NCBI RefSeq assembly: GCF_058153355.1
Contig: NZ_CM177019.1
Direction: 5' to 3' (one strand)
DNA: 64,000 nt
Made by a program: the position numbers and the translations under genes. Below are positions 5,583-40,671 of the stretch, piece after piece. The notes under the pieces were generated by a model. It was given only the letters and a program-made list of their open reading frames with translations. It had not been told where the DNA came from and did not search any database. Positions within the stretch are counted from its first letter, which is position 1; each line of letters begins with the position of its first letter.

Positions 5583-5608
5583 TTGATACCCCTTCCGTAA
5601 AAAAATAC

Positions 5609-7060: not shown

Positions 7061-7085
7061 GTATTTTTATTGGCTCGTTGTTTTT

Positions 7086-7185
7086 GCCTAATGCGGCGTG
7101 AACGCCTTATCCGACCTACAAAATCTTGCAAAATCAATACATCGTAGAACGTTGTAGGCCTGGTAAGCGTAGCGCATCAGGCAAC
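7086..7185. repeat. REP/BIME element (pair of inverted REP units)
   Basis: gcctaatgcggcgtgaacgccttatccgacctac and inverted partner gtaggcctggtaagcgtagcgcatcaggc. Confidence 0.7.
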
Positions 7186-7191
7186 TACGTT

Positions 7192-11374
<4,183 letters not shown>

Positions 11375-11656
11375 TCAGCACGCTGGCTCATGGATTAAGC
11401 ACCTGATTGCAACCGTTTTCACTTTCCGTGCTTCTCCTAAAGACAGAAGCATCGACTTCGTGTAGGGTTTGCCAGCAAATTTATTTATCAACCGTCTTAC
11501 AGACGCTTCCATTCTGGTTAGTGGTAGCGATGATGCTATGCATAAAAACCTTGAAGCCTGCGTCTGGCGCGGTCAGGTCGGTGTCGCTATGGCAACAAGC
11601 CTAAAGGCATAACCCGACAGGGATAAGACGAAAAATCCGAGATTAGTTAACCATAT

Positions 11657-12814
11657 ATGAATCCAGTACCCGCGCAACGTGAATATTTCCTCGACTCCAT
11701 CCGCGCCTGGCTGATGTTGTTAGGGATCCCTTTTCATATTTCTTTAATCTATTCGAGCCATACATGGCATGTGAATAGCGCCGAACCGTCATTGTGGCTG
11801 ACCCTTTTTAATGACTTCATCCACTCGTTCCGCATGCAGGTATTTTTCGTTATATCCGGGTACTTTTCTTACATGCTTTTTTTACGCTATCCCTTGAAAA
11901 AATGGTGGAAAGTACGTGTCGAACGTGTAGGGATCCCGATGTTAACAGCCATCCCCCTACTGACATTGCCGCAATTTATTATGCTGCAATACGTCAAAGG
12001 GAAAGCGGAAAGTTGGCCTGGGCTGTCATTGTATGACAAATATAATACGTTGGCCTGGGAATTAATATCACACCTGTGGTTTTTACTGGTGTTAGTGGTC
12101 ATGACGACGCTGTGCGTATGGATATTTAAACGCATCAGAAATAATTTAGAAAATTCTGATAAAACGAATAAAAAATTCTCGATGGTAAAATTATCGGTGA
12201 TTTTTTTGTGCCTCGGCATCGGTTATGCGGTAATAAGAAGAACGATTTTTATTGTGTATCCACCCATTCTGAGTAACGGCATGTTCAATTTTATTGTCAT
12301 GCAAACGTTATTTTATTTGCCGTTCTTTATCCTCGGCGCACTGGCTTTCATTTTCCCTCATCTTAAAGCCTTGTTTACCACGCCGTCTCGTGGCTGTACC
12401 CTCGCAGCAGCATTGGCATTTGTCGCTTACTTACTCAACCAGCGCTATGGCAGTGGCGATGCCTGGATGTACGAAACCGAGTCGGTGATCACCATGGTCC
12501 TCGGTCTGTGGATGGTGAATGTGGTCTTCTCCTTCGGCCACCGTTTGCTTAACTTCCAGTCAGCGCGGGTGACTTACTTTGTTAACGCATCGCTATTTAT
12601 CTATCTGGTTCACCACCCGTTAACGCTGTTTTTCGGCGCGTACATTACACCGCACATCACCTCCAACTGGCTTGGTTTTCTCTGTGGCCTGATATTCGTA
12701 GTAGGGATTGCGATAATTCTGTATGAAATTCATTTACGCATCCCGTTACTGAAGTTTTTGTTCTCTGGTAAACCGGTTGTTAAGCGTGAGAACGATAAAG
12801 CACCAGCCCGTTAA
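11657..12814 (+). CDS. opgC: glucan succinyltransferase OpgC/MdoC (385 aa, membrane acyltransferase)
   Basis: ORF 11657..12814; polytopic acyltransferase-3-like; divergent from opgGH as in K-12. Confidence 0.85.
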
Positions 12815-12821
12815 GCCGCGT

Positions 12822-14252
12822 TTACAATAACCATTCCACAGGCAATATCGACGCCAGTCTGACCATAACCCGCTTCCAGAAACTGGTAGCGGGTTCTTTT
12901 TTGAGAACAATTTCTTTCTTAGCATGACGATCAACCCAGTTGATCCGCCCCCACCTGTCCAGACGGAGCTGCCAGGCCGCATCATACTGGCTCTGAATAA
13001 AGCGTTTATCAATTAACTGTGCCAGCGTTTCGCTCTCTATCACGAACCCCATTTCAGTATTGAGCAATGTCGAACGTGGATCGAAATTGAAAGAGCCAAT
13101 AAACACCGTTTTACCATCGATGCTAAAGGTTTTAGCATGCAGGCTGGCACCGGAATTACCGGTTATGCCGCGATCGTGTAACGTACTACTTTGTTCACGC
13201 GTCGGCTTGAGTTCATATAATTCCACGCCGTAGCGGAGCAATTTTTTGCGCCAGCGCGCGTATCCGGCATGGACGACAGCAACATCGTTAGCGGCAAGAG
13301 AATTGGTTAGGATCGCAATCTTTACCCCTTTTCTCACCATCCGTAAGAGTTGCGCCACACCTGCGCGTGTCGGTACAAAATAGGAAGAGATAATATCGAT
13401 GCGTTCACTGGGTGAGCCCATGATATCGAACAGGCGCTGCGGTAACAGTGAATGCCGTTTTGCCTTGCCTTCCCCTTTCGCCGGATCATCACTTAATAAA
13501 CGTGTTTTCGCCCAGATAAGCGGCAACGTTCCCTCAACCAGATGATTTATAAACGGGCTGGATTCCATTTTGCGTAAATAACGATGCGTCATGGCATCGT
13601 CATGCCAGGAGGCGGGTAACTCGATGCGATCCGCCATTTCACCTTCCGGGACATCCAGCACCTGCTGTAAGGGTGAAACCGATTTACAATACCAGTAGCG
13701 GGCGAAATCATCGGCAACGTCCTCTACAACTGGTCCTATTGCCATGACATCTAAATCCGAAAAAAGTGGCTCTTCCCCTGCACCAAAATAGGCATCACCA
13801 ATATTTCGCCCTCCTACCAGCGTCACCACGCCATCGACAGTGAAACTTTTATTGTGCATACGGCGATTGAGACGGGAAAAGTCGGTGATATAACCAAGCG
13901 GACGTAGCAAGCGAAACGAGAAAGGATTAAAAAGCCGGACTTCAATGCGGGGATGACTGTCAAGCAAGCGTAAAATGTCGTCAAGTCCGGGTGTATTGTT
14001 GTCGTCCAGCAACAAACGGACGCGAACGCCACGCTTTGCTGCGGCTAACAGGGCGGAAAACAGTAACCGACCCGACATATCGTCCTGCCAGATGTAATAC
14101 TGAACATCCAGCGTATGCTCTGCCATTTCGGCCAGACGATACCGGGCGGCAAACGCATCCAGACTTTTCTCCAGAGGGAAAAGGCCACACTGACCGGGAT
14201 GTTGCGAACACAGTGGCAGCACCGCGCTCGCCAGCCGGGGCAAATCATTCAT
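12822..14252 (-). CDS. clsC: cardiolipin synthase C ClsC/YmdC, phospholipase D family (start uncertain: ATG 14252 or TTG 14243)
   Basis: ORF 12822..14312; two HxK(x)4D-type PLD motifs (MHNKSF..., [10 protein letters not shown]...); synteny with ymdB. Confidence 0.8.
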
Positions 14253-14778
14253 CTCCTTGTTGGGTAAGGAGTCTTTCGTAGAGGTGGGCGTTTTCTTCAT
14301 CATAACAGACAAAGTATACCTGTTCGGGTAAAGCGTGACGGGTAATAAATTCTGAAACGGTTTTTACTGCGATTTCAGCCGCTGCCGCACGAGGGTAACC
14401 ATAAACCCCAGTACTAATTGCAGGAAAAGCCACTGACGTATAGCTGTTTGCCGCCACCAGTCGTAGGCTATTGAGATAGGCATCCTGCAAAAGCTGGTCT
14501 TCGTTTTGTTCACCACCACGCCAGACTGGCCCGACGGTGTGCACTACGGCTTTCGCGGGAAGATCGCCTGCAAGCGTAATAACGGCATGCCCCGTAGGGC
14601 AATCGCCCTGCTGCTGCCTGACTTTTAAACAGGCATCCAGCAGGGCCGGACCCGCTGCGCGATGAATGGCCCCATCGACGCCGCCGCCTCCCATTAATGA
14701 CGGATTAGCAGCATTCACAATCACATCAACGGCCAGTTTGGTAATATCACCCTGCACAACATGAATACGCGTTTTCAT
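14245..14778 (-). CDS. ymdB: macro-domain O-acetyl-ADP-ribose deacetylase YmdB (177 aa)
   Basis: ORF 14245..14778; macro domain motifs ([23 protein letters not shown]). Confidence 0.85.
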
Positions 14779-14872
14779 AACGCCTCCTTACACCTTCTTG
14801 TTTCTTAAGTGTACAGCAGGCTTTTTGGTTAAATCGCATTTTTCTGCTCAGCAAGGTGAGTTGTTCAGAAAC

Positions 14873-15252
<380 letters not shown>

Positions 15253-15253
15253 C

Positions 15254-15637
<384 letters not shown>

Positions 15638-15695
15638 ATTCTTCTCCCGAAAAAAAACAGGGCTTGCGCCCTGTTTCTTTAATACAGAGGATGTA

Positions 15696-16151
15696 TTAGT
15701 ACTGATGAGCGGTCGCGTTGTTACCAAAGCCAACCTGAGTGACGTTAACGCTGGAGTTAGATGCAGTCTGGTCAACAGCAGCACCGTTACCGCCACCGAA
15801 CTGTTTAACAGTCATAGTAGAATCTTTACCATTCCACTGATCAAGAGTGGCGCTGTTACCGAAGCCACGCTGAGTCAGATCGATTGAGCTGTCATCTGAG
15901 CCCTGACCAACATCTGCACCGTTACCACCGCCATGCTGGGTAATAGTCAAGTCAGAGTTACGGGCATCAGTTTGCAGAGCAAGTGCAGAGTTACCGCCAC
16001 CGTACTGGTAAATGTTCAGCTCTGAATTTGGGCCGCTATTATTACCGCCACCACCGTGGTTACCGCCGCCGCCGTACTGAGGAACAACACCTGCCAGAGC
16101 GCTACCAGAGAATACGATTGCTGCAATTGCTGCTACTTTTAAAAGTTTCAT
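15696..16151 (-). CDS. csgA: major curlin subunit CsgA (151 aa)
   Basis: ORF 15696..16151; five imperfect Gln/Asn/Gly-rich curlin repeats. Confidence 0.95.
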   Translation of the reverse strand: MKLLKVAAIAAIVFSGSALAGVVPQYGGGGNHGGGGNNSGPNSELNIYQYGGGNSALALQTDARNSDLTITQHGGGNGADVGQGSDDSSIDLTQRGFGNSATLDQWNGKDSTMTVKQFGGGNGAAVDQTASNSSVNVTQVGFGNNATAHQY

Positions 16152-16191
16152 GTAAAACCCCCATCGGATTGATTTAAAAGTCGAATGGAAA

Positions 16192-16647
16192 TTAACGTTG
16201 TGTCACGCGAATAGCCATTTGCGACTGTCTCTGCACTACAATTGCCGTTTTTTGAGTACCATACTGTGTAATATTTGCTTTATTACCAGAACCTTTCTGG
16301 ATAATCATCGCAGTATTACCATAAGCACCTTGCGAAATACTGGCATCGTTGGCATTGCCCGCCTGATCAATATATGCAAGGTTATAATCTCCTGTCTGGT
16401 CAATCTTTGCCCGGTTGCTACTACCTTCTTGCGCAACAACCGCCAAAAGTTTTGAGCCTCCCTGCCGTAACTGAGCACTATTATTAGTCCCAGCTTGACC
16501 AATTATGGCTGCCTGATTAAATGAAGACTTACTCAATTCATTTACCGCGAAGTTATATTCTGAATTAGCTAAATCATAACCTGCTGCGGCTGCAATCCCA
16601 GGCGCACCCAGTATTGTTAACATCATAAATAACAATTTGTTTTTCAT
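16192..16647 (-). CDS. csgB: minor curlin nucleator CsgB (151 aa)
   Basis: ORF 16192..16674; start MKNKLLFMMLTILG; curlin repeats. Confidence 0.9.
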   Translation of the reverse strand: MKNKLLFMMLTILGAPGIAAAAGYDLANSEYNFAVNELSKSSFNQAAIIGQAGTNNSAQLRQGGSKLLAVVAQEGSSNRAKIDQTGDYNLAYIDQAGNANDASISQGAYGNTAMIIQKGSGNKANITQYGTQKTAIVVQRQSQMAIRVTQR

Positions 16648-17401
16648 GTTGTCACCCTGGACCTGGTCGTACATTTAAGAAATTAAATCATTTCAACTTG
16701 GTTGTTAACGCAACCTGTATTTTGTTAACGCCGCGTTACGATGGAAAGTATGTCTGCGGAAATATTTTTAATAACTCACCCGCGCGTTGTATTTTTCTTT
16801 TTTTGTTCATACCAAAGTATTAAAACCCACGTAAATACGCTGTTATCTACGCAAAAAAAATATTTTGTTTTCTTTCAAATTTCGGTTTTCCGCAATCAAA
16901 AATCACCAGACAGTCATTCTTCTTGCCCGTCGCTGATTGCTGCGATATGTATTGCGCACAAGCCGTGACAAACCTCGTCTTTTTGCAGTAAAAAATTGTC
17001 CACGGAGGTGTGGAGAAAAAACAAGAACGTTTTACATGACGAAAGGACTACACCGAAATATTTTTATATGCATTATTAGCAAGTTAGCACCATTTGTATG
17101 ATTTTTTAAAATTGTGCAAGAAAAACCAAATGTACAACTTTTCTATCATTTCTAAACTTAATAAAACCTTCAGATTAACATTTTAATATAACGAGTTACA
17201 TTTAGTTACATGTTTAACACTTGATTTAAGATTTGTAATGGCTAGATTGAAATCAGATGTAATCCATTAGTTTTATATTTTACCCATTTAGGGCTGATTT
17301 ATTACTACACACAGCAGTGCAACATCTGTCAGTACTTCTGGTGCTTCTATTTTAGAGGCAGCTGTCAGGTGTGCGATCAATAAAAAAAGCGGGGTTTCAT
17401 C
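16648..17401. promoter_or_regulatory. csgBAC / csgDEFG divergent intergenic control region (about 750 bp, AT-rich)
   Basis: long AT-rich spacer between divergent csgB and csgD; position corresponds to the well-studied curli regulatory region; individual binding sites not mapped here. Confidence 0.75.
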
Positions 17402-18052
<651 letters not shown>

Positions 18053-18056
18053 AGCC

Positions 18057-18446
18057 ATGAAACGTTATTTACGCTGGATTGTGGCGGCAGAATTCCTGTT
18101 CGCCGCAGGGAATCTTCACGCCGTTGAGGTAGAAGTCCCGGGCTTGTTAACTGACCATACTGTTTCATCTATTGGCCATGATTTTTACCGAGCCTTTAGT
18201 GATAAATGGGAAAGTGACTATACGGGTAACTTAACGATTAATGAAAGGCCCAGTGCACGATGGGGAAGTTGGATCACAATAACGGTCAATCAGGACGTTA
18301 TTTTCCAGACTTTTTTATTCCCGTTGAAAAGAGACTTCGAAAAAACTGTCGTCTTTGCACTGATTCAAACTGAAGAAGCACTAAATCGTCGCCAGATAAA
18401 TCAGGCGTTATTGAGTACGGGCGATTTGGCGCATGATGAATTCTAA
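18057..18446 (+). CDS. csgE: curli secretion specificity factor CsgE (129 aa)
   Basis: ORF 18057..18446; synteny. Confidence 0.9.
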
Positions 18447-18470
18447 ATAAAAAATTGTTCGGAGGCTGCA

Positions 18471-18887
18471 ATGCGTGTCAAACATGCAGTAGTTCTACTC
18501 ATGCTTATTTCGCCTTTAAGTTGGGCTGGAACCATGACTTTCCAGTTCCGTAATCCAAACTTTGGTGGTAACCCAAATAACGGTGCTTTTTTATTAAATA
18601 GCGCCCAGGCACAAAACTCTTATAAAGATCCGAGCTATAACGATGACTTTGGTATTGAAACGCCATCAGCGTTAGATAACTTTACCCAGGCCATCCAGTC
18701 ACAAATTTTAGGTGGGCTACTGTCGAATATTAATACCGGTAAACCGGGCCGCATGGTGACCAACGATTATATTGTCGATATCGCTAACCGCGATGGTCAA
18801 TTGCAGTTGAATGTGACGGATCGCAAAACCGGACAAACCTCGACCATCCAGGTTTCGGGTTTACAAAATAACTCAACCGATTTTTAA
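18471..18887 (+). CDS. csgF: curli assembly protein CsgF (138 aa)
   Basis: ORF 18471..18887; signal peptide; synteny. Confidence 0.9.
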
Positions 18888-18913
18888 GCCCCAGCTTCAT
18901 AAGGAAAATAATC

Positions 18914-19747
18914 ATGCAGCGCTTATTTCTTTTGGTTGCCGTCATGTTACTGAGCGGATGCTTAACCGCCCCGCCTAAAGAAGCCGCCAGACCGACATTA
19001 ATGCCTCGTGCTCAGAGCTACAAAGATTTGACCCATCTGCCAGCGCCGACGGGTAAGATCTTTGTTTCGGTATACAACATTCAGGACGAAACCGGGCAAT
19101 TTAAACCCTACCCGGCAAGTAACTTCTCCACTGCTGTTCCGCAAAGCGCCACGGCAATGCTGGTCACGGCATTGAAAGATTCTCGCTGGTTTATACCGCT
19201 GGAGCGCCAGGGCTTACAAAACCTGCTTAACGAGCGCAAGATTATTCGTGCGGCACAAGAAAACGGTACGGTTGCCATTAATAACCGAATCCCGCTGCAG
19301 TCTTTAACGGCGGCAAATATCATGGTTGAAGGTTCAATTATCGGTTATGAAAGCAACGTCAAATCGGGCGGGGTTGGGGCAAGATATTTTGGGATCGGTG
19401 CCGACACGCAATACCAGCTTGATCAGATTGCCGTGAACCTGCGCGTCGTCAATGTGAGTACCGGCGAGATCCTCTCCTCGGTGAACACCAGTAAGACGAT
19501 ACTTTCCTATGAAGTTCAGGCCGGGGTTTTCCGCTTTATTGACTACCAGCGCTTGCTGGAAGGGGAAGTGGGTTACACCTCGAACGAACCCGTTATGCTG
19601 TGCCTGATGTCGGCTATCGAAACAGGGGTCATTTTCCTGATTAATGATGGTATTGACCGTGGTCTGTGGGATTTGCAGAACAAAGCAGAACGGCAGAACG
19701 ACATTCTGGTGAAATACCGCCATATGTCGGTTCCACCGGAATCCTGA
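18914..19747 (+). CDS. csgG: curli secretion channel lipoprotein CsgG (277 aa)
   Basis: ORF 18914..19747; lipobox LLSGC; synteny. Confidence 0.9.
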   Translation: MQRLFLLVAVMLLSGCLTAPPKEAARPTLMPRAQSYKDLTHLPAPTGKIFVSVYNIQDETGQFKPYPASNFSTAVPQSATAMLVTALKDSRWFIPLERQGLQNLLNERKIIRAAQENGTVAINNRIPLQSLTAANIMVEGSIIGYESNVKSGGVGARYFGIGADTQYQLDQIAVNLRVVNVSTGEILSSVNTSKTILSYEVQAGVFRFIDYQRLLEGEVGYTSNEPVMLCLMSAIETGVIFLINDGIDRGLWDLQNKAERQNDILVKYRHMSVPPES

Positions 19748-19753
19748 TAGATA

Positions 19754-19826
19754 AAAATGCCGGAATTAATAATCCGGCATTTTACTGTTTAAGCGAAAGC
19801 GTGAGTGCCCCTCACGCTTTATTTTT
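19754..19826 (+). terminator. two consecutive hairpins downstream of csgG (putative terminators)
   Basis: aaaatgccgga...tccggcatttt and gcgtgag...ctcacgc followed by tttattttt. Confidence 0.55.
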
Positions 19827-20303
19827 GATTTGCTGCTCACGGTGAGCCGTCTTTGCACTACGCGCCGCCAGCCACAAGCCGCTGTTTTTCATTGCGTAAC
19901 CAAATACCAGTCCAAGCGCCAGCGAAGGTAACACCAGTTTCCAGTCACCCTGCCCGGCAAACGTCGCGCATGCGCCTATAAACGTCCCCGGAACAAATGA
20001 AAGCAGCAGCTGTTTCGCCTGAATACACATCAGAAACGCGACAATACCGGTTATGACATAACCGAGAATTTCCAGATGTGGTGCCAGTGCACTACCGTAA
20101 ATAATGACCATCGCCCACACCACGCCACTAAGCAGGGTTGCAGCGGAGATCGCCAGCCCTTTCAGCCCACCTTGCGGGCAGGCAAAGTAGGCCGTACAGC
20201 CCAGGAAGCCCGCCCAGCTTAGTAAGCCCAGGGAAACAGCCACCCATCCCCAGATACCTGAGAGAATGCCTGTTGTGATTGCAATAGAGAGAAGTATGTT
20301 CAT
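19812..20303 (-). CDS. ycdZ: inner membrane protein YcdZ (DUF1097; 163 aa from Met MNILLSIAITT)
   Basis: ORF 19812..20351; polytopic hydrophobic; synteny. Confidence 0.75.
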   Translation of the reverse strand: MNILLSIAITTGILSGIWGWVAVSLGLLSWAGFLGCTAYFACPQGGLKGLAISAATLLSGVVWAMVIIYGSALAPHLEILGYVITGIVAFLMCIQAKQLLLSFVPGTFIGACATFAGQGDWKLVLPSLALGLVFGYAMKNSGLWLAARSAKTAHREQQIKNKA

Positions 20304-20404
20304 GCCGCGCATGATAGCAGAAAACGCGGCCATGAATGAGATCGAGCACACATTTTATGCAACAACAAATTATCTGTTGCAGTTATGAGTGATGGAGATC
20401 ACAT

Positions 20405-20959
20405 TTACTCTTCAGAATCTTCTTCCAGCTCGTCCCACATTGCACTAATAGCATCGCGGGTTAGCGGTGCCATGGTGCGCCAGAAAGGCGTAGTTGCATG
20501 GGCCTCCACTTTGCCAAGGAACGCACCACACCAGGGTAACAGATACTCACTGAACAGTGTTTCCAGTGCTTCGCTCTCATCTTCCGTTGACTGATCTTCC
20601 AGCCAGGAAGCCGCGAGCAGCAATGTACCGATGTGATCGGCTGGCGTATCCGCTAATGGCATCCCTCGTTCGGAAAGAAAAGCGCGCACTTCCGCTTCCG
20701 TCGCGCCCTCAACCCATGCGCTACGATATGGCGGCACAGCACATTCATCGCCGATAAACAACGCATTGTATTCGGCAGAGACTTGCGCCATATCACAGCT
20801 TTTCTGTAAACGTGTCAGTAACTCATCCTGCTCCAGTGGCCAGTTCGCAGCCAGTTTCCCCTCACGAATCAGGGTAAACAGCGGCACCAGTAAAGGATCT
20901 TGCGGTTGGCGGTAATAGAGCGAACCCAGCACACGACAGAGGATAGAAAACTCGTTCAT
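20405..20959 (-). CDS. ycdY: TorD-family redox enzyme maturation chaperone YcdY (184 aa)
   Basis: ORF 20405..20959; synteny with ycdX. Confidence 0.8.
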   Translation of the reverse strand: MNEFSILCRVLGSLYYRQPQDPLLVPLFTLIREGKLAANWPLEQDELLTRLQKSCDMAQVSAEYNALFIGDECAVPPYRSAWVEGATEAEVRAFLSERGMPLADTPADHIGTLLLAASWLEDQSTEDESEALETLFSEYLLPWCGAFLGKVEAHATTPFWRTMAPLTRDAISAMWDELEEDSEE

Positions 20960-20982
20960 TAATATATTTCCATTACTAGTAA

Positions 20983-21720
20983 TTAAAGGTCTGCAAATTC
21001 CGCAATCGGTGCCATACCGCGAGATTCAAGGAAGTTCAGTAAGCGGCGCGGAGAAACATTCAAAATGCGCTCTGGCGGAAAATCTACCGCGTCGAGGATT
21101 TTAAGACACTCTTCAAATTCACCCATGGTAAACGCGGTGTGAGAATCCGAGCCTAATGCCACCCAACCTCCAGCGTCACGTACCGCTGCGGCTACCGCAC
21201 GACAGTTGTCTTCACTGCCCTTACGTGAGTGTAAAAATGAGGAATTATTGATTTCCAGCGCCACCTGATGTTTCGCAGCTGCTTCAGCAACGGCTTTAAC
21301 ATCTATTTCATATTTCGGATTTCCGGGATGGCTTATTATATGCACATTGCCGCTGGCGATAGTGGCGATCATCGCTTGCGTATTGGTCGCTTTGTCATGC
21401 GGCGCAAACACCGGCTCATGAAAACCGGCAATAATCAGATCCAGCGAATCAAACATTTTGCCACTGCAGTCAATTTCACCGTCAACATTTTTAATGTTAG
21501 CTTCGATGCCGCGCAGGATCCCTACCCCATCAACCACTCGCGGCCAGATACGCATGTTAATGAAGTGCCAGTGATGCGGCGCATCTTCCATATCCGGGCC
21601 ATGATCGGTGATCGCAAAAAGTTTAATGCCCTTTTGTTTGGCCTGGGCAATGTAATCACTCAATGTGCTATATGCATGCGTGCTGGCAACGGTATGCATA
21701 TGAAGGTCGACGGGATACAT
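20983..21720 (-). CDS. ycdX: PHP-domain zinc phosphatase YcdX (245 aa)
   Basis: ORF 20983..21720; N-terminal His-rich metal motif [14 protein letters not shown]. Confidence 0.85.
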
Positions 21721-21774
21721 AACTCTCTCCTGTATTCAATTCCCGCCAAGGATAGCAGGAAACCTGATGCTTTA

Positions 21775-22752
<978 letters not shown>

Positions 22753-22946
22753 TTATCGTTATGATCTACAAAGGCCACCAGCATAACAAATCCGTGGTCG
22801 GTGGCAAAAAAAGCAGATTTCGCTTATTAAAACTGCATATTGATTGAAGTTTGAATAAACGCGCGATTTTTTTAAAAAGTTTGTTGACCTCAGGTCATGA
22901 TTTCCCTAAATTAGCGCCCGTTCCAGCAAGACAGGAACGACAATTT

Positions 22947-23034
22947 GGTGAGGTGTCCGAGTGGCTGAAGGAGCACGCCTGGAAAGTGTGTATACGGCAA
23001 CGTATCGGGGGTTCGAATCCCCCCCTCACCGCCA
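22947..23034 (+). tRNA. serX: tRNA-Ser (anticodon GGA), 88 nt with long variable arm
   Basis: ggtgaggtgtccgagtggctgaaggagcacgcctGGAaa...gggggttcgaatcccccctcaccgcca; cloverleaf by eye, CCA-encoded 3' end. Confidence 0.9.
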
Positions 23035-23480
23035 TCTTTAAAGAAGAGCTCGTACGAAAGTACGGGCTTTTTTTTTCGTATATTGCACACACCGGGGGGA
23101 TGAGAAGCCCCGACAGGGGTTCGACAACTGGCGACAGCCAGTTGGACAGACCGTGAACGCAGTGAGCGGGCTGCCCGCAGGGCGAGCGAAGCGAGTCAAT
23201 CCCCCCCTCACCGCCATCTTTAAAGAAGAGCTCGTACGAAGGTACGGGCTTTTTTTTCGTATATTGCACACACCGGGGGATGAAAAGCCCCGACCGGGGT
23301 TCGACAACTGGCGACAGCCAGTTGGACAGACCGTGAACGCAGTGAGCGGGCTGCCCGCAGGGCGAGCGAAGCGAGTCAATCCCCCCCTCACCGCCATCTT
23401 TAAAGAAGAGCTCGTACGAAGGTACGGGCTTTTTTTTCGTATATTGCACACACCGGGGATGAAAAGCCCTGACCGGGGTA
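23016..23480 (+). repeat. tandem direct repeat array, about 2.6 copies of a ~180-bp unit, each unit beginning with a 19-nt copy of the serX 3' end and a hairpin+T-run
   Basis: aatccccccctcaccgcca recurs at 23016, 23198, 23378; following ~160 bp nearly identical between copies, with internal 8-bp stem caactggc/gccagttg. Confidence 0.85.
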
Positions 23481-23485
23481 CTTAG

Positions 23486-24172
23486 TTAATGCAACGGTTC
23501 ACCCTTTGTCGCCGCGGCTAATGGGCGAATTTTGTCACGGGTATCCCAGACCGGAGGGATTTCATCCAATTTAGTGACAGAAGCTCGTACAAAAGGCACC
23601 CGTGCAATAGTCATAATCGTATTCAACCAACGGTCACGAATAATGCGATCTGCCCTTTCATGACTCGGATCATCCAGCTCAATAACACAGACTATTTTAT
23701 TGTTCTTCTTTGAAACCAGAACATAATCCATTGCCATTCCATTATAAATTGCAAAGAAACGCTTTCTTTCTTCTTCGCTAAACTCGGGTTGTTCTGGAAA
23801 GTTGATCAAGCGCCCCAGAGAGACCTGGCAATGGATATGGCAATAATGTCCAAACCATTTCTCCAGATTATCGAAATAGATTTTCTCACAACGCGTAATT
23901 AACCACTCTTTTCCTTCCAATAAAATGCCTTCGGCAACCATTCCCTGAAATAACTCATCTCGTTCTTGCCAACGAGAATCACGATAGGTTTTCTGCGGTG
24001 TATAGCTCCTTGTCGACGCCTTAACAGCAGGGGAAGTTGCAGATGAAGGGACTGGTTGCAATTTAGTGATGATTACCGATGAGGCAACTTTTCGGAGTGT
24101 CAATTTTCTGGCAACAGCAAAACCGGCGACAAATGCAATTGTCAAACAAGTTACAAAAACCATAAAGCTCAT
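23486..24172 (-). CDS. orphan membrane-anchored protein with putative DUF2726 / PD-(D/E)xK nuclease-like C-terminal domain (228 aa)
   Basis: ORF 23486..24172 with AGGTGA Shine-Dalgarno; N-terminal TM helix; C-terminal motif AMDYVLV...KIVCVIELDDPSHE resembles the D..(D/E)LD..H signature I associate with DUF2726; not a gene I recall at this K-12 position. Confidence 0.55.
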   Translation of the reverse strand: MSFMVFVTCLTIAFVAGFAVARKLTLRKVASSVIITKLQPVPSSATSPAVKASTRSYTPQKTYRDSRWQERDELFQGMVAEGILLEGKEWLITRCEKIYFDNLEKWFGHYCHIHCQVSLGRLINFPEQPEFSEEERKRFFAIYNGMAMDYVLVSKKNNKIVCVIELDDPSHERADRIIRDRWLNTIMTIARVPFVRASVTKLDEIPPVWDTRDKIRPLAAATKGEPLH

Positions 24173-24721
24173 AATTAATCTTCACCTATCCATGTTGATT
24201 ATATTTCATTACTAACGCTACTCGCTGTAGCGAGTTACATGCCAACAATTCAACGATCCATATATAGTTAGTATCATGTTTTGATTATTACAACCATACC
24301 TATTTTGCCATTGCGGCTTGCCGTCCACAAAAAATAACAACACAAAATATTAGCCAAAGAATTAATTAAGATTAACCTGACATTTTTAATGTTATCCCTA
24401 AAAAATATAATCAGGGGAATGTATTCGGTGTTAATCAATCAGCCAAATTATGGTCCATTATTGATGGAACCTCATACGCAAAATTGGCACCAGACCTCCT
24501 GTACAGGTTGAATGGCTGAAAAAAGATAAGCAGATGCTCGCTTTTTGGGCTTCTGGAAGAAAAACTCTCCGCACTGGCGGTATTACACTGGTCTGGTGCT
24601 ATGACGACAAATGCCCGGTAAGAGTATCTAAACCTGAATTCATTTCAGCTTATCAACACGCTCAAAGTCGCCCCCTGAACGTTAACCTGAAGTGAAAATC
24701 TTTGCTGTTAATGAAATAAAA

Positions 24722-24745
24722 CAAAGCCCGGTTCGCCCGGGCTCT
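24722..24745 (-). terminator. hairpin downstream of phoH (putative terminator)
   Basis: agcccggttcgcccgggct inverted repeat just 3' of the phoH stop. Confidence 0.5.
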
Positions 24746-24760
24746 GCGCCGATAATACAC

Positions 24761-25684
24761 TTAACTGTATGCATGTAGCGTACGTTGGCAAAGTGCTGAA
24801 CGTACGCAATCCTCTTTACCGAATCGGACGATCCCGACCATTTCATCTTCTTCGAAACGTTCCAGCGCGTCACTTAATCCGGAGCGCACGCCGCGAGGTA
24901 AATCGCATTGCGTGATATCACCGTTGACAATAACCGTCACGTTCTCCCCGAGGCGGGTTAAAAACATTTTCATTTGCGCGGCAGTCACATTCTGCGCCTC
25001 GTCAAGAATGACGACTGCATTTTCAAAGGTACGTCCACGCATATAGGCGAACGGCGCAATTTCCACCTTCCCTATTTCCGGTCGCAGGCAGTACTGCATA
25101 AAGGAAGCCCCTAAGCGACGGACCAGCACGTCGTAGACCGGGCGAAAATAGGGAGCAAACTTTTCTGCGATATCACCAGGTAAGAAACCAAGATCTTCAT
25201 CGGCTTGCAGAACTGGACGGGTGACGATAATCCTGTCGACATCCTTATGTATCAGGGCCTCTGCCGCTTTTGCGGCACTGATCCAGGTTTTTCCGCACCC
25301 GGCTTCGCCGGTGGCGAATATCAGCTGCTTACTCTCAATAGCCTTCAGATAGTGCAATTGCGCTTCATTTCGCGCGAGGATGGGCGAGGTATCGCGACTG
25401 TCGCGGGCCATACCAATGGCTTCTACGCCGCTCATCTGCACAAGCGAGGTGACCGATTCTTCTTCACGCTGCTTATGGCTGCGCGAATCCCGTCTCAGCA
25501 CACGTTTTGCCTCGCGACGAGCTTTGATCACTGCTTTTTGTCTTCCCATGGAGAGCACCTTGAGTTGTTTGTATTCATCACACGCGCCGTTGGCAGCGCG
25601 ATTATGCGCACGAACATCAGAGGGTTGGCTTCCTTGTAAGCCATAGTTTGCTTTTGGATAAAATGCCGAAAAACGGCTACGCAC
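24761..25684 (-). CDS. phoH: PhoH, phosphate-starvation-inducible ATPase (307-aa ATG ORF; true N-terminus uncertain, see findings)
   Basis: ORF 24761..25684; Walker A GEAGCGKT and PhoH-family core; synteny next to efeB. Confidence 0.8.
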   Translation of the reverse strand: MRSRFSAFYPKANYGLQGSQPSDVRAHNRAANGACDEYKQLKVLSMGRQKAVIKARREAKRVLRRDSRSHKQREEESVTSLVQMSGVEAIGMARDSRDTSPILARNEAQLHYLKAIESKQLIFATGEAGCGKTWISAAKAAEALIHKDVDRIIVTRPVLQADEDLGFLPGDIAEKFAPYFRPVYDVLVRRLGASFMQYCLRPEIGKVEIAPFAYMRGRTFENAVVILDEAQNVTAAQMKMFLTRLGENVTVIVNGDITQCDLPRGVRSGLSDALERFEEDEMVGIVRFGKEDCVRSALCQRTLHAYS

Positions 25685-26014
25685 ACCGTTTGCGGCGTCG
25701 GTAACACGAGTAAAGAGAGGAAGTGAGAAAAATACAGAGTGACGAAGTTGCTACCGGAGGAGAAATCTCCGCGAGTGGTGGAGCCTTGCTTAACAAAACA
25801 TTGTCCAGAACAGGACGTTACCATCCGCGATCTCCATAGTGACTGACTATCACTGCCGGGAACTTCCGCTGCTACTTAATAAGTACAACAGATCTCGCAT
25901 TCATTGCAACAATATATTCACTTATATTTAACCATAAAACACCATTTCAGTGACATTAGTTTCTACTGGAAAGATGACAGAGTGATGACAGTGATGAAAA
26001 AAGCTGTGTGCTTT

Positions 26015-26180
26015 CAGCAGGATTCGCATCAGGCATCAACGCACGAACGCCGGATGCGGCGTGAACGCCTTATCCTGCCTACCGAACCCGCACCGATTGT
26101 AGGCATGATAAGACGCGCAAACGTCGCATCAGGCATCAGCGCACGAACGCCGGATGCGGCGTAAATGCCTTATCCGCCTC
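26015..26180. repeat. REP/BIME cluster (three or more REP units) between phoH and efeB
   Basis: repeated gccggatgcggcgtgaacgccttatcc and inverted copies. Confidence 0.7.
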
Positions 26181-26186
26181 TAAAAA

Positions 26187-27458
26187 TTAAACTCGCAATA
26201 ATGCGCTTCCAAGATAATCGTTCGCGTCCTTCACCCCCGGCAGCGCAAAAAAATAACCGCCGCCGATGGGTTTAACGTATTCCTCCAGCGCTTCACCATT
26301 GAGCCTTTTTTGTACTGTCAGGAAGCCCTTTTCCAGATCGTGTTGGTAGCAGACAAACAGCAACCCCATATCCAGTTGCCCGGAGTTGGTAACACCCAAC
26401 GAATAACTGTAGCCACGACGCAGCATCAGACTGGACTCGCTCTCCGTCGTGCGGGGATTCGCCAGCCGGATATGGCTGTCCAGCGCGATCACCTTCCCTT
26501 CCGGATCACTGGCGTAATCGGGAACATCATGCTCATGCTGCATTCCCAGCGGCGCACCGGTTTGCTTATCGCGACCAAAAATTGTCTGCTGTTCTTTCAG
26601 CGGCGTTCTGTCCCAAAATTCCACTCGAAACTGAATCAAACGCACCGCCTGGTAGCTGCCGCCGATAGCCCACGCAGGCTCCTGCTGATCTGCCGTCACC
26701 CACACTACTTTTTGCATCACTTTCGCATTTTGGCTGTCAGGATTAGCAGTGCCGTCTTTGAAACCCAGCAAATTAATCGGCGTCTCTTTGCCTTTACTAC
26801 GCGCTGCGTGATCGGAAATAAACCCTTCCCGCTTCCAGCGCACACTGAGCAAATCCGGCGTATGTTTGATGATATCGCGCAGCGCATGGATCACCGTGTC
26901 CTGGGTGTTGGCGCAAATTTGTAGCAACACATCACCATGACATAACGCCGCATCCAGCGAGTCGTTGGGGAAACGCGTCATCTTCTGCAACTTTTTCGGC
27001 ATCTGTGGCGCAAGACCAAACCGTTCATCAAACAACGAGTGACCAACTGACAACGTGATGGTGAGATTGTCGGGCGCAATGTAGCCGCCAAGAATGCCGG
27101 AATCGCGTGGTGGCAGGCGCGGATTTGGCGTTTCTGGTGCTGCTCCGCCCTGAGTCAGAAAAGCAAAACGCTGAGTCAACAAGCGAAACAATCGCTCAAG
27201 ATCAGCTTTATCGCTGGCAAGCACATCAAACGCCACCAGCATCATTGTCGCCTGCTGCGGCGTCAGAATACCCGCCTGATGTTCGCCATAAAACGGCTGC
27301 GCTTCACTGCGCGCATCCGGTGAAAGCGTCCCCGGCGCACTTAGTGGTTTTTGCGCATGCGCTACCGGGCAACTTCCCGCCAGTGCCAGCGCGCCAATCC
27401 CTTTCAGTAAACGTCGGCGTGACGGTTCATTCACGCCGTTTTCATCTTCATACTGCAT
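26187..27458 (-). CDS. efeB: Dyp-type haem peroxidase EfeB with Tat signal (423 aa)
   Basis: ORF 26187..27458; twin-arginine motif [13 protein letters not shown]; synteny. Confidence 0.9.
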
Positions 27459-27463
27459 AACGC

Positions 27464-28591
27464 TTAATCCAGTCCCAGCACACCACGAAGTTGCGCCAGA
27501 TCTTCCGCCAGCGCAGTAATCGGCCCTTTCAGCGCATTACGATCGGCATCGGTCAATTTGTCGTAGGTTTCAAAACCGTCTTTAGTACGGTATTTCGCCA
27601 GAATGGTATCGACCTTTTTGAAGTTAGCATCGACTTTTGCCAGCAGTTCCGGGTTGGCTTTTTGTAGTTGTGGACGCAGCAGATCGACAATTTTCTGCGA
27701 GCCTTCAACGTTAGCCTGGAAGTCCCACAGATCGGTGTGGCTGTAGCGATCTTCTTCACCGCTGATTTTGCTGGCTGCTACTTCCTCAATCAGTCCGGCT
27801 GCGCCGCCGACCACTTTTGAAGGTGGGAAAGCCAGTTCACTGATGCGTTTTTGCAAATCGACCACATCGGTATAAAGCTGGTCAGCGTACTGATCCATTC
27901 CTTTGGTAGTGTTGTCGCCAAACAAGGCTTTTTCCAGACGATGGAATCCGGTGAATTTCGGATCGGCGGCTTTTTGCTCGTAATCATCTTCACGGGCGTC
28001 AATGCTGCCATCCAGATCGGAGAAAAGTTCAGCAATCGGTTCGATGCGCTCATAGTGCTGGCGCGTCGGCGCATACAGTGCTTTCGCTTTTTCGATATCG
28101 CCTGCTTTAATAGCGTCGGTAAAGGCTTTGGTGTCGGTCACCAGTTGCGTGGTTTCCGCCATGACATACGCTTTATATGCAGTAATTGCACCACCAAGAC
28201 TTAACAGCGCATCACTTTGCGCCGCATCCACCGTTGCTTCACCTTTGACGATCAACTTCCCTTTCGGGTTAGTCAGCAGACCGCAGGTCATATCGTATTC
28301 GCCAGGCTGTAAATTCGCCGTCATTTTCTGGCTAAAACCAGGGGCGATATTTTCCCGCTCTTCCACCACCATTACGCCTTTGAGGATCTCCCACTCCAGC
28401 GCCTTCTGGCTGTGGTTCTGAATAATGAACTGTGTTTTCCCGGCGTTAACCGTAATGGTCATCGGTTCGCACTGTTTATCCGTCACGGTCACTTTGACCT
28501 GCGGAACATCAGCAGCGTTAGCCATAAAAGCAGAGGAGAACAGCGCAGCCACGCTTAATTGCAGTGCACTATGGCGGAAGTTAATGGTCAT
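27464..28591 (-). CDS. efeO: periplasmic iron uptake protein EfeO (375 aa)
   Basis: ORF 27464..28591; signal peptide; synteny. Confidence 0.9.
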
Positions 28592-28648
28592 GACGAGACT
28601 ATCCCTTTAAAGTATGTTGTAACTAAGCAAAAGTTTGCGTCATTTTCG

Positions 28649-29479
28649 TTACGCGGAGCGAGACGCTGTCGCCCCTGCGCGCGGCGGCAGAGCAAATGCC
28701 ACCAGCGCCGGGATGAGATAAATAAACCAGACGGCGACTTCGCTGACGCTCGGCGCTTCCTGATAACCAAAGATACCTTCCATCAGCGTACCGAACAGCG
28801 AGTGAGTTGAGAGCACCGCGCTCATATCGAAGACGATTTCCTGAAAGTGGTTCCACAGCCCGGCTTCATGAAACGCGCGAATAGCACCTGCCGCCAGCCC
28901 TGCGGCGACGAAGAGAATAAAGAGGCTGGTCCATTTAAAAAACGCGCCAAGATTGAGGCGAATACCGCCCCAGTAGAGCAGGAAGCCGAGCACCACGGCT
29001 GTAGCAAGACCGAGCATTGCACCCAGCGGAGGCCAGATCCCGACATCTTGTTGAAACGCCGCCAGCAGGAAAAAGACCGACTCCAGCCCTTCCCTTGCAA
29101 CGGCAAAAAAGACCATCATCACCAGCGCCCAGCCATGATGATTCCCACGCTGCAATGCGCTATCGACTGCCTGTTCCAGTTGCACTTTGACGTTGCGCGA
29201 CACTTTACGCATCCAGAAAACCATCCAGGTGAGGATCACCACGGCAATCACCGCCACGATACCTTCGAACAATTCCTGCTCTTTTTGCGGAAATTCGCCG
29301 GTGGTTTCATTAATGAAGATACCCAGCCCCAGGCACAACGCAGCGGCTAGCAACACGCCAATCCACATGACACCAATCCATCGACCTCGCTGGGTACGCT
29401 TAAGATAGCTGGCAATCAGGCTGACAATCAGCGCGGCTTCAAGTCCTTCGCGCAACATAATGAGAAACGGAACAAACAT
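28649..29479 (-). CDS. efeU: ferrous iron permease EfeU, apparently intact (276 aa from Met MFVPFLIMLREG)
   Basis: single uninterrupted ORF 28649..29488; two REGLE-type motifs (MLREGLEAAL, AREGLESVFF) typical of FTR1 permeases. Confidence 0.85.
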   Translation of the reverse strand: MFVPFLIMLREGLEAALIVSLIASYLKRTQRGRWIGVMWIGVLLAAALCLGLGIFINETTGEFPQKEQELFEGIVAVIAVVILTWMVFWMRKVSRNVKVQLEQAVDSALQRGNHHGWALVMMVFFAVAREGLESVFFLLAAFQQDVGIWPPLGAMLGLATAVVLGFLLYWGGIRLNLGAFFKWTSLFILFVAAGLAAGAIRAFHEAGLWNHFQEIVFDMSAVLSTHSLFGTLMEGIFGYQEAPSVSEVAVWFIYLIPALVAFALPPRAGATASRSA

Positions 29480-29698
29480 GCCACCCACCCTTAAACGTTT
29501 TTCTGAGTCAATCTATGCAAAGAAAAGTAAATCGCAGTGATAGCGATTATCATTACGGTGAAGAAAAACACAAGCGGAATGTAGTGATAATGATGAGGAA
29601 ATGTAAATTTTTTTTGAGAGAAAATGCAGAGGGCAATCACTGATTGCCCTCTGCCTGCTTCTGATTATGACGTGGGATTTTCGGTAAAACGCCTTCCC

Positions 29699-31207
<1,509 letters not shown>

Positions 31208-36270: not shown

Positions 36271-36500
36271 GCGCTCTCCCCTCTTGTTGATTGGCAACAG
36301 GATAGCAAAACCCCCGCCCGGCCTCGACCTTCTGCACTCTCATCGCGCACGAATGCATGTTTTATGTGCAACTGTTTTGACCGTTTAGTCCACTTTTTTC
36401 CAGGCATTTTAGACAACTTAATATTAACACATTAATAACATTCACTTTTTAAAAACTGGCATCCGCTTTGCTAACTAGACATTACGCGGCTGAAAAGGAT

Positions 36501-38341
<1,841 letters not shown>

Positions 38342-38352
38342 GGAGTTTAATG

Positions 38353-38739
38353 ATGCCGAAATCCGTAATTATTCCTGCTGGCAGCAGCGCACCGCTGGCC
38401 CCCTTCGTTCCCGGCACGCTGGCTGATGGCGTGGTGTATGTCTCCGGCACGCTGGCTTTTGATCAACATAATAACGTGCTGTTTGCCGATGACCCAAAGG
38501 CGCAAACCCGCCACGTTCTGGAGACCATCCGCAAGGTTATCGAGACGGCGGGTGGCACGATGGCGGACGTGACCTTCAACAGCATCTTTATTACCGACTG
38601 GAAAAATTACGCCGCGATTAACGAAATCTACGCCGAGTTTTTCCCTGATGATAAACCGGCGCGATTCTGCATTCAGTGCGGACTGGTAAAGCCTGACGCG
38701 CTGGTGGAAATCGCCACGATTGCGCATATCGCTAAGTGA
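38353..38739 (+). CDS. rutC: RidA/YjgF-family aminoacrylate deaminase RutC (128 aa)
   Basis: ORF 38350..38739; RidA-like. Confidence 0.85.
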
Positions 38740-38746
38740 GGTGGCG

Positions 38747-39559
38747 ATGAAACTTTCACTCTCACCTCCCCCTTATGCTGATGCGCCCGTAGTGGTATTG
38801 ATTTCGGGTCTTGGCGGCAGCGGCAATTACTGGTTGCCGCAACTGGCGGTGCTGGAGCAGGAGTATCAGGTAGTCTGTTACGACCAGCGCGGTACCGGAA
38901 ATAATCCAGATACGCTGGCGGAAGACTACAGTTTGGCGCAGATGGCAGAGGAACTGCATCAGGCGCTGATGAGTGTGGGGATTGAGCGTTATGCGGTGAT
39001 CGGCCATGCGCTCGGGGCGCTGGTGGGAATGCAGCTGGCGCTGGATTATCCCGCATCGGTCACTGCACTGGTCAGCGTTAACGGCTGGCTACGAATAAAC
39101 GCCCATACCCGCCGCTGTTTTCAGGTTCGCGAACGATTACTGCATAGCGGCGGCGCGCAGGCATGGGTGGAAGCGCAGCCGTTGTTCCTCTACCCCGCCG
39201 ACTGGATGGCGGCCCGCGCCCCTCGCCTTGAAGCGGAGGACGCGCTGGCACTGGCGCATTTTCAGGGCAAAAACAATTTACTGCGTCGACTTAACGCCCT
39301 CAAACGTGCTGACTTTAGTCGCCATACGGATCGCATCCGCTGCCCGGTGCAAATCATCTGCGCCAGTGATGATCTGCTGGTGCCCTCAGCCTGTTCCAGT
39401 GAACTTCATGCCGCCCTGCCCGATAGCCAGAAAATGGTGATGCGCTATGGCGGACACGCCTGCAACGTGACCGATCCCGAAACGTTTAATGCTCTGTTGC
39501 TCAACGGGCTTGCCAGCCTGTTACATCATCGTGAAGCCGCCTGTAAGGAATTGCTATGA
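38747..39559 (+). CDS. rutD: alpha/beta hydrolase RutD (start approximate)
   Basis: ORF 38720..39559; alpha/beta hydrolase motif GHALGA. Confidence 0.8.
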
Positions 39560-40146
39560 ACGAAGCCGTTAGCCCTGGTGCGCTTAGCACCCTGTTCACC
39601 GATGCCCGCACTCACAACGGCTGGCGAGAGACACCCGTCAGCGATGAGACATTACGGGAGATTTATGCCCTGATGAAATGGGGGCCGACATCAGCTAACT
39701 GTTCTCCGGCACGGATCGTGTTTATCCGCACTGCAGAAGGAAAAGAACGTCTGCGCCCGGCGCTTTCCAGCGGCAATCTGCAAAAAACCCTGACCGCGCC
39801 CGTCACCGCGATCGTCGCCTGGGACAGTGAATTTTATGAACGGTTACCACAGCTGTTTCCTCACGGCGATGCCCGCAGTTGGTTTACCTCCAGCCCACAA
39901 CTTGCCGAAGAAACAGCGTTTCGCAACAGTTCCATGCAGGCGGCCTATCTGATCGTCGCCTGCCGGGCGCTGGGGCTGGATACCGGCCCGATGTCCGGCT
40001 TTGACCGTCAACACGTGGACGACGCCTTTTTTGCGGGTAGCTCGCTGAAAAGCAACCTGCTGATTAATATCGGCTATGGCGATAGCAGCAAACTATATGC
40101 GCGTCTTCCGCGTCTGTCCTTTGAAGAGGCCTGCGGGCTGTTGTAA
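39556..40146 (+). CDS. rutE: nitroreductase-family malonic semialdehyde reductase RutE (196 aa)
   Basis: ORF 39556..40146; 4-bp overlap with rutD. Confidence 0.85.
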
Positions 40147-40156
40147 GGAGCAAACC

Positions 40157-40651
40157 ATGAACATTGTCGATCAACAAACCTTTCGCGATGCGATGTCCTG
40201 TATGGGTGCAGCAGTCAATATCATCACCACGGACGGTCCAGCCGGGCGCGCCGGGTTCACCGCCAGCGCCGTCTGCAGCGTGACCGATACGCCGCCCACA
40301 TTACTGGTGTGCCTGAATCGTGGGGCGTCCGTCTGGCCGGTATTCAATGAAAATCGGACGCTGTGTGTAAATACACTTAGCGCCGGGCAGGAGCCGCTTT
40401 CAAACCTTTTTGGCGGTAAAACGCCCATGGAACACCGCTTTGCCGCCGCCCGCTGGCAGACTGGTGTGACCGGATGCCCGCAACTGGAAGAAGCGCTGGT
40501 TTCGTTTGACTGCCGTATCAGCCAGGTGGTGAGCGTCGGCACCCACGACATTCTGTTTTGCGCCATCGAAGCGATTCATCGTCACGCCACCCCCTACGGG
40601 CTGGTGTGGTTTGATCGCAGTTATCACGCGCTGATGCGCCCTGCTTGTTAA
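40157..40651 (+). CDS. rutF: flavin reductase RutF (164 aa from Met MNIVDQQTF)
   Basis: ORF 40076..40651; flavin reductase-like. Confidence 0.85.
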
Positions 40652-40671
40652 CCTCCTTAAGGAGACAGCTG

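Follow-up and report, generated by a model that had tools for sequence, protein, structure and literature searches.

The stretch between the tRNA gene serX and phoH has been described as a variable part of the Escherichia coli chromosome in two comparative studies. Cimdins et al. (2017; PMC5635171) reported that ycdT, pga and an IS are missing between phoH and csgG in strains Tob1, Fec101 and B-8638, while serX-ghrA-ycdXYZ is kept. The pan-genome work of Leimbach et al. (2017; PMC5422975) assigned the seven genes pgaABCD-ycdT-ymdE-ycdU to a variable, accessory region. The presence or absence of pga between serX and phoH is an already reported and common polymorphism of the ordinary accessory-genome kind, and the locus and the polymorphism described there are identical to those of the DNA analysed here. 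The sections of the two reports that deal with the region describe an absence and do not mention a DUF2726 gene with its spacer, the breakpoints, the ancestral polarity or the allele frequencies. What the present analysis contributes is the make-up of the alternative allele with its exact breakpoints, the frequencies of the alleles, additional allelic forms and the direction of the change.

The window, i.e., the whole stretch of 64,000 nucleotides that was analysed (RefSeq assembly GCF_058153355.1, contig NZ_CM177019.1), derives from E. coli. Over the csg/mdo flank, its identity to complete E. coli genomes is 97.8-99.1%, the closest genome being that of the goat strain R32_14_1F. The genes are arranged in the order ycdZ-ycdY-ycdX-ghrA (minus strand), serX, repeat array, DUF2726 gene, spacer, phoH, efeB, efeO, efeU and putP (Table 1). 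Only 1,726 bp separate serX from phoH, compared to 11.5 kb in K-12 MG1655, whose annotated record gives the order phoH-pgaDCBA-dgcT-IS3D-ymdE-ycdU-serX. A sequence-only reading of the window had given this order and a distance of around 10 kb for K-12, and the K-12 record agrees with it; the gap of about 1.7 kb, the array, orphan gene and hairpin that it named and the coordinates that it gave for the spacer and the 53-codon ORF all hold. It had also proposed a whole-region alignment with K-12. Using blastn, two collinear flanks were obtained, which extend from 16598 to 23478 on the serX side (97.85% identity) and from 24718 to 29607 on the phoH side (94.8% identity). Between them lie 1.24 kb that are found only in the window (23480-24717) and 10.86 kb that are found only in K-12 (8101-18961 of the K-12 locus, L001). 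The junction alignment further places the K-12 pgaD stop codon 7 bp past the right breakpoint at 24718. Since each allele holds DNA that is absent from the other, the difference between the window and K-12 is a replacement polymorphism and not a simple indel.

Table 1. Features of the serX-phoH region, with positions in the 64,000-nucleotide window.
Feature	Position	Strand	Evidence
ghrA (glyoxylate/hydroxypyruvate reductase A), conserved serX-side flank	21775..22713	-	ORF list; 97.1% identity to K-12 ghrA; ghrA annotation in matching genomes
serX, tRNA-Ser(GGA)	22947..23034	+	ARAGORN; Rfam tRNA 53.8 bits
Tandem array, 180-bp units, 2.6 copies, 97% matching	23016..23479	+	TRF
Left breakpoint zone, last partial repeat unit	23441..23458	.	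K-12 homology stops at 23457/23458 (junction alignment); IS mapping
DUF2726 gene, 228 aa; absent from K-12, in ~19% of complete E. coli genomes	23486..24172	-	ORF; Pfam
AT-rich non-coding spacer, 588 bp	24173..24760	.	39.1% GC vs 50.4% whole window; no Rfam family
53-codon open frame, chance ORF	24534..24695	+	ORF list; strain alignment
C homopolymer, 4, 5 or 6 C by strain	24671..24675	+	Window aligned with L002, L003, L004, L005
Right breakpoint and shared phoH terminator	24718..24760	-	K-12 homology restarts at 24718; hairpin 24721-24747, then T-run
phoH, conserved flank; 262-aa form per RefSeq	24761..25549, stop at 24761	-	Pfam PhoH E 6.8e-77; annotation in matching genomes

The absence of the K-12 pga block, which the sequence-only reading had pointed out, was borne out by this alignment and by tblastn. 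K-12 PgaA, PgaB, PgaC, PgaD, DgcT, YmdE, YcdU and InsE/F had no significant match in the whole 64-kb window or when the spacer was searched alone, and the combination of tblastn and sensitive blastn revealed no remnant of Pga, DgcT, YcdU, YmdE or IS3 in the spacer or in the rest of the window. The idea that the spacer might hold a pga-derived remnant, for instance of PgaD or YcdU, was thus not upheld. With regard to a PNAG locus, neither the PgaA porin nor the PgaB deacetylase nor a PgaD convergent with phoH is encoded in the window (tblastn, blastn), and no gene for the PgaC GT2 synthase is located between serX and phoH (tblastn). The sole PgaC match in the window (tblastn) lies within the mdoH/opgH region, at 8476-8730, and is a GT2 with an identity of 25%.

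The compact arrangement is also found outside of E. coli. Three outgroup loci were typed: those of the E. albertii type strain, of Escherichia sp. MOD1-EC7003 from a cryptic clade and of Salmonella enterica, with E. fergusonii, E. marmotae and E. ruysiae lying beyond the reach of a contig scan that relied on exact peptide words. For the E. albertii type strain, positions 34164-15009 of the window form one collinear 19.2-kb alignment of 89.1% identity, which spans efe, phoH, the spacer, the DUF2726 gene, the repeats, serX and ghrA, and Pga, DgcT and YcdU are absent from the locus of this strain. Escherichia sp. MOD1-EC7003 has the phoH-spacer-DUF2726 layout, and S. enterica carries putA-putP-phoH-DUF2726-(IS)-repeat units-serX-ghrA-ycdXYZ-csgG. 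The DUF2726 gene diverges in the same manner as its neighbours: compared to the window, the nucleotide identity in E. albertii is 88.6% for DUF2726, 87.3% for ycdX, 85.7% for ghrA and 88.8% for efeB, and the values for Salmonella are 79.1% for DUF2726, 79.0% for ycdX and 82.4% for phoH. Because the layout is common to E. albertii, the cryptic-clade genome and Salmonella, with DUF2726 diverging like the genes around it, the compact layout is, judged by these comparisons, the ancestral one for Escherichia and Salmonella, and the pga layout of K-12 is derived. This reverses the polarity implied by the sequence-only reading, in which the pga block was expected and its absence pointed to a replacement or deletion. 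K-12 would hence not be the ancestral reference at serX-phoH.

The frequencies of the two blocks were determined in 5,426 complete E. coli genomes. pgaC is present in 4,382 of them (81%), and the segment comprising the DUF2726 gene and the spacer in 1,051 (approximately 19%), 1,043 of which match it at a coverage of at least 80%. The two counts add up to 5,433 and are thus almost perfectly complementary, which is the pattern expected of two blocks that compete for one site. Seven or more genomes give a match to pgaC as well as to the DUF2726 segment, and one of these, E8, contains only remnants. According to the identity to the window, the compact alleles fall into two classes of 378 genomes (95-99%) and 673 genomes (90-95%), the latter including O111:H8 and O103 strains; the two classes differ by 4.5% in the DUF2726 gene and by 9% in the spacer. 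A linkage between the unusually divergent efe-putP flank of the window and the pga allele was considered and rejected, as efeB of the compact strains O111:H8 and SC434 is as far from the window as that of K-12. Around one fifth of the complete E. coli genomes lacks pgaABCD and dgcT altogether; O111:H8 and O103 STEC belong to this group, as do many poultry isolates. PgaC is the only known PNAG synthase of E. coli, and it can reasonably be inferred from the window and from the near-complementary genome counts that the strain would be unable to make PNAG. Strains with the compact allele should likewise be PNAG-negative, a point of relevance to biofilm studies and to vaccine or antibody strategies directed against PNAG.

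Several properties of the pga block can be compared with those of tRNA-linked genomic islands. Like these, it adjoins a tRNA gene, has a low GC content, varies in content between strains and lies close to copies of the tRNA 3'-end. Its GC content without IS3 is 43.6%, as opposed to 50.4% for the window, and its distribution is patchy: 81% of E. coli have it, and the loci examined in E. albertii and Salmonella lack it. PgaD, moreover, lacks a graded series of orthologs, since the next named relative after the E. coli clusters (at least 88% identity) is a Citrobacter protein with 56% identity, the operon of which is situated in an unrelated context. By its low GC content and the lack of graded PgaD orthologs, the block looks foreign. 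It differs from tRNA-linked islands, such as the integrase-bearing element at serX of the O111:H8 strain 02-3334, in that no integrase is annotated in the K-12 block, whose only mobility genes are the transposase genes of IS3D. Direct repeats of the tRNA 3'-end do not bracket it either; the copies are restricted to the array on the serX side, and the phoH-side end is formed by the terminator hairpin. No integrase, att duplication or target-site duplication was found to flank the block, and it replaces resident DNA rather than being simply inserted. The K-12 phoH/pgaD junction is present in 4,328 genomes, nearly all of the 4,382 pgaC-positive ones, and also in a divergent variant with 89% PgaD identity. 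This fixed junction, which includes the 89% variant, argues for one founding event of the pga replacement.

Taken together, the compact allele of the window is very probably the ancestral one at a locus downstream of serX that exists in several allelic forms, and the pga block of approximately 10 kb would be a derived replacement, with both alleles having segregated ever since. The older layout would have consisted of ghrA, serX, the RtT-like array, the DUF2726 gene, the non-coding spacer, the phoH terminator and phoH. The lineage from which most E. coli descend would then have exchanged around 1.26 kb, running from the end of the last repeat unit through the DUF2726 gene and the spacer, for the low-GC block pgaDCBA-dgcT-ymdE-ycdU of about 10 kb, one end of which would have come to abut the phoH terminator and the other to lie inside the terminal repeat unit. 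This replacement may have come about by illegitimate or IS-assisted recombination at that unit. The later segregation of both alleles within E. coli would most likely have occurred by homologous recombination in the conserved flanks, and the serX side would have been remodelled further by IS insertions, an integrase island and a deletion joining dgcT to a repeat.

The reverse course of events, in which the ancestor was K-12-like and the pga-dgcT-ycdU block was lost or replaced in the lineage of the window, the spacer and the short ORF being the scar, is highly improbable. K-12-like pga alleles form the majority in E. coli (81%), and decay of the block does happen, as illustrated by E8, in which an IS1-mediated deletion left remnants of pgaC, pgaD and ycdU. 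However, genuine deletions such as those of E8 and the U14A type look different from the compact allele, which possesses 1.24 kb without a counterpart in K-12, including an intact gene under purifying selection, and the window retains no trace of Pga, DgcT or YcdU at the DNA or the protein level. The same layout in E. albertii and Salmonella, at a divergence expected of orthologs, likewise speaks against a loss. A second alternative is that the pga allele had been fixed in the ancestor of E. coli and that the compact allele was re-imported once or more from other Escherichia via recombination in the flanks. The two well separated DUF2726 classes of E. coli would fit this scenario, as would the cryptic-clade allele (L012), which is 96.1% identical to the window gene and thus as close to it as E. 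coli alleles are. Phylogroup B1 furthermore holds both states, with O111:H8 and O103 in the present sample as opposed to the pga-positive B1 strains of Leimbach et al. (PMC5422975). The divergence between the window and O111:H8 in phoH (97.6% identity) and efeB (93.4%), however, is comparable or greater, so that the classes need not be foreign, and the compact layout stays the older state of the genus either way. As a general account, this re-import is unlikely; on the basis of the two classes and the close cryptic-clade allele, some compact E. coli alleles may nevertheless have returned by recombination between lineages rather than by unbroken descent.

A third explanation regards PNAG and the membrane-anchored DUF2726 protein as functional alternatives that are maintained by balancing or niche selection. 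Both alleles occur at an appreciable frequency (19% and 81%) in several backgrounds, and the DUF2726 gene is under purifying selection. In one small panel (Leimbach et al., PMC5422975), pga was enriched in mastitis B1 strains relative to commensals, a difference that was not statistically significant. The occupancy of the same site, however, fully accounts for the mutual exclusivity of the two blocks, and the DUF2726 protein matches nothing in PADLOC or NCBIfam. A two-state locus held by selection, as opposed to a neutral leftover of one replacement, is quite unlikely. The derived replacement of an ancestral compact allele also agrees with the diversity of arrangements at the serX end.

Arrangements vary much more on the serX side than towards phoH. 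The K-12 junction on the side of ycdU is found in only 2,659 genomes. A third, U14A-type form, in which dgcT with its last 34 bp altered is fused to the serX-proximal repeat unit and which lacks ymdE, ycdU and most of the array, occurs in 1,398 genomes, and other arrangements are present in around 325 pga-positive genomes. APEC O2-211 and its relatives, which have the compact allele, harbour an IS3-family element with a 4-bp duplication at the position equivalent to 23441-23444 of the window, approximately 14 bp from the K-12 breakpoint. An element that is 90% identical to it resides at the equivalent position in Salmonella, compared to around 79% identity for the surrounding core genes. The shared position in Salmonella and E. 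coli and the excess of identity of the element over the core genes suggest that it uses a site-specific target in the terminal repeat. Strain AF40 contains an IS200/IS605 element in the array, and the O111:H8 island mentioned above is inserted at serX. The hybrid locus of E8 is a pga block that has decayed through IS1, with a truncated pgaD that runs into the distal 235 bp of a window-type spacer. It was considered as an insertion intermediate and rejected, being a singleton among the 5,426 genomes with a truncated pgaD. The IS3, IS200/IS605 and integrase elements and the E8 and U14A forms justify the label of a replacement or deletion hotspot that the sequence-only reading had given to the site. 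Since the IS3-family and IS200/IS605 elements, the pga replacement and the U14A deletion all use the array or end in it, it is conceivable, though improbable, that the terminal RtT-like unit is a dedicated insertion slot for cassettes and that the DUF2726 protein serves a genuine function in the cell or in defence, given up by 81% of E. coli in exchange for PNAG; in that case selection would maintain the locus as a switch between two states, and it would not be a neutral relic.

Each unit of the array is composed of a copy of the serX 3'-end with a terminator hairpin, which is followed by an RtT-like element, and sequence matches show that the serX-side array also exists in K-12, E. albertii and Salmonella. 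The 180-bp units thereby resemble the RtT repeats of the tyrT operon (Rfam RF00391), which share the combination of a tRNA 3'-end copy and an RtT element, and homologous units elsewhere are labelled 'RtT sRNA' by RefSeq. They differ from these repeats in that they follow serX and not tyrT, and in that their scores of 41.7 bits (23080-23216, E 4e-6) and 39.9 bits (23259-23396, E 1e-5) are both below the gathering score of 45, the E-values indicating real similarity.

The gene that is specific to the compact allele encodes a protein with an N-terminal transmembrane helix, a disordered linker and a C-terminal domain with the nuclease fold of the PD-(D/E)XK superfamily (Vsr-like). Residues 90-205 match the DUF2726 profile (PF10881) with 66.9 bits (cut-off 24.7; E 1.8e-18), and the domain shows the alpha/beta core of restriction endonuclease-like folds. 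Its nearest fold relatives belong to the Vsr/DUF559/I-Bth0305I branch of the superfamily (Steczkiewicz et al. 2012, PMC3424549), and the function of DUF2726 is listed as unknown in Pfam and in the literature (PMC3424549). Residues E165, D168 and H171 do not vary among 18 homologs, and D149 hardly does. The protein is nuclease-like by fold, with a putative activity, and the basic residues after the helix suggest a cytoplasmic location of the domain. None of the genomes examined has a disrupted copy of the ORF, its dN/dS values range from 0.05 to 0.34 and the C-terminal domain is nearly invariant; the gene is under purifying selection. No match to a PADLOC or NCBIfam model was obtained for the protein, and it was ruled out as a known defence gene, as no PADLOC model recognises it. 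RefSeq labels the gene of other compact-allele genomes as 'DUF2726 domain-containing protein', adjoining phoH and a tRNA-Ser gene. More distant homologs, from Erwinia, Dickeya and a 37%-identical paralog of E. coli, are located in ICE-like or T6SS islands without phoH. Because of these locations, the copy of Escherichia and Salmonella may be an old, domesticated island gene at a tRNA site. PhoH2 (PIN-PhoH) and YbeZ-YbeY are models for a pairing of PhoH with a nuclease. A functional ATPase-nuclease pair of PhoH and the DUF2726 protein was rejected, since the distant homologs occur without phoH and a strong terminator and 590 bp separate the two genes in the window. Both Salmonella and E. coli have retained the gene, which is invisible in K-12-centred work.

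For the 53-codon ORF in the spacer, the sequence-only reading had considered a gene remnant or a small protein. The open frame itself exists, but neither interpretation stood. Its codon 21 (24594-24596) changes from TGG to TGA in L004 and L003, which represent the commonest allele class, a variable C-run (Table 1) shifts the frame of the 3' end in L002 and L005, and the changes in L004 comprise 11 nonsynonymous and one synonymous substitution. Compared to E. albertii, the region is 72-80% identical, which is below the values of the coding flanks. A search of 5.8 billion proteins retrieved nine short 'hypothetical' or 'partial' calls from E. coli, all of them from the same locus, and the ORF and the spacer match no Pfam, NCBIfam, PADLOC or Rfam family. 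The stop codon, the frameshifts, the nonsynonymous excess and the lack of homologs elsewhere rule out a gene, a remnant or a small protein.

A structured RNA is not apparent in the spacer either, as no Rfam family matches it at E<=1. Its conservation is uneven: in the profile against E. albertii, the part next to the DUF2726 gene reaches 84-90% identity, compared to 56-80% for the distal part, which evolves faster than the neighbouring genes. The better conserved DUF2726-proximal third extends to around 24300, and sites resembling sigma-70 promoters are present on the minus strand at 24311-24284 and 24434-24407. This third is probably the promoter and 5' leader of the DUF2726 gene.

Besides the compact allele, which lacks the pga block, and the K-12 allele, a third common allele, represented by E. 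coli U14A, lies between serX and phoH in 1,398 genomes. It has the order phoH-pgaDCBA-dgcT followed by the serX-proximal repeat unit, to which dgcT is fused with its final 34 bp altered, and is devoid of ymdE, ycdU, IS3 and the full repeat array. A hybrid allele was found in one of 5,426 genomes, E. coli E8, and consists of a ycdU remnant, IS1, a pgaC remnant, a pgaD truncated to its first 252 bp, a spacer of the window type and phoH; the pgaD fragment directly abuts the spacer.

In both E. coli APEC O2-211 and Salmonella enterica, an IS3-family element occupies the same site in the terminal unit of the repeat array, around 14 bp away from the K-12 breakpoint. Identity between the two copies is 90%, whereas the flanking core genes share about 79% identity; together with the shared position, this suggests that the terminal repeat unit is a site-specific insertion target. 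In the STEC strain O111:H8 02-3334, which carries the compact allele, a tyrosine-recombinase gene and island sequence directly adjoin the RtT-like repeats and the DUF2726 gene, indicating that an integrative element has been inserted at serX.

Coordinates of the features described here
Feature	Sequence	Position	Strand
Ysr251 match	window	24766-24900	+
Tyrosine-recombinase gene and island sequence	O111:H8 02-3334 (L004)	1180-2382	
Hybrid allele	E8 (L003, NZ_CP104526.1)	5320-7235	
Spacer part present in E8	window equivalent	24479-24717	
Third common allele	U14A (L014, NZ_CP035516.1)	21680-21830	
IS3-family element	window equivalent	23441-23444	
IS3-family element	APEC O2-211 (L019)	~1045-2355	
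IS3-family element	Salmonella enterica (L010)	7501-8956	
phoH-upstream/efeB/efeO/efeU/putP stretch	window	25518-31117	
IS4 element	window	~5635-6981	
Stretch without cryptic-clade counterpart (~5.5 kb)	window	36396-41859	

DUF2726 proteins are for the most part encoded on mobile elements. Homologs of the protein with 37-48% identity (L015, L016 and L017) are encoded either in ICE-like regions, which contain TraG_N/TraU, integrase, VapBC-like toxin-antitoxin, RadC and CbtA genes, or beside a VgrG/PAAR T6SS cluster. A copy 99% identical to the E. coli DUF2726 protein is also encoded on a 1.45-kb contig (L011, JAIJJM010000775.1) of a MAG labeled Collinsella; this copy is almost certainly due to E. 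coli contamination or mis-binning.

On the other side of the spacer, the 3' end of phoH is overlapped in antisense by an Rfam match to Ysr251, a Yersinia antisense sRNA. The match scores 120 bits, above the gathering score of 100, and runs into the end of the searched stretch. The region from upstream of phoH to putP is 90-96% identical to K-12, compared to about 98% on the csg side. Since efeB is equally divergent in other compact-allele strains, this deep haplotype structure of the efe/putP stretch shows no linkage to the pga allele. The efeUOB genes are entirely missing from the Salmonella loci and the Escherichia cryptic-clade locus L012.

Elsewhere in the window, the IS4 element between yceK and mdoH is missing in the closest relative, R32_14_1F, and is carried by a few E. 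coli genomes (e.g., VL46). The alignment with the cryptic-clade locus skips from window position 36396 to about 41859-42029.
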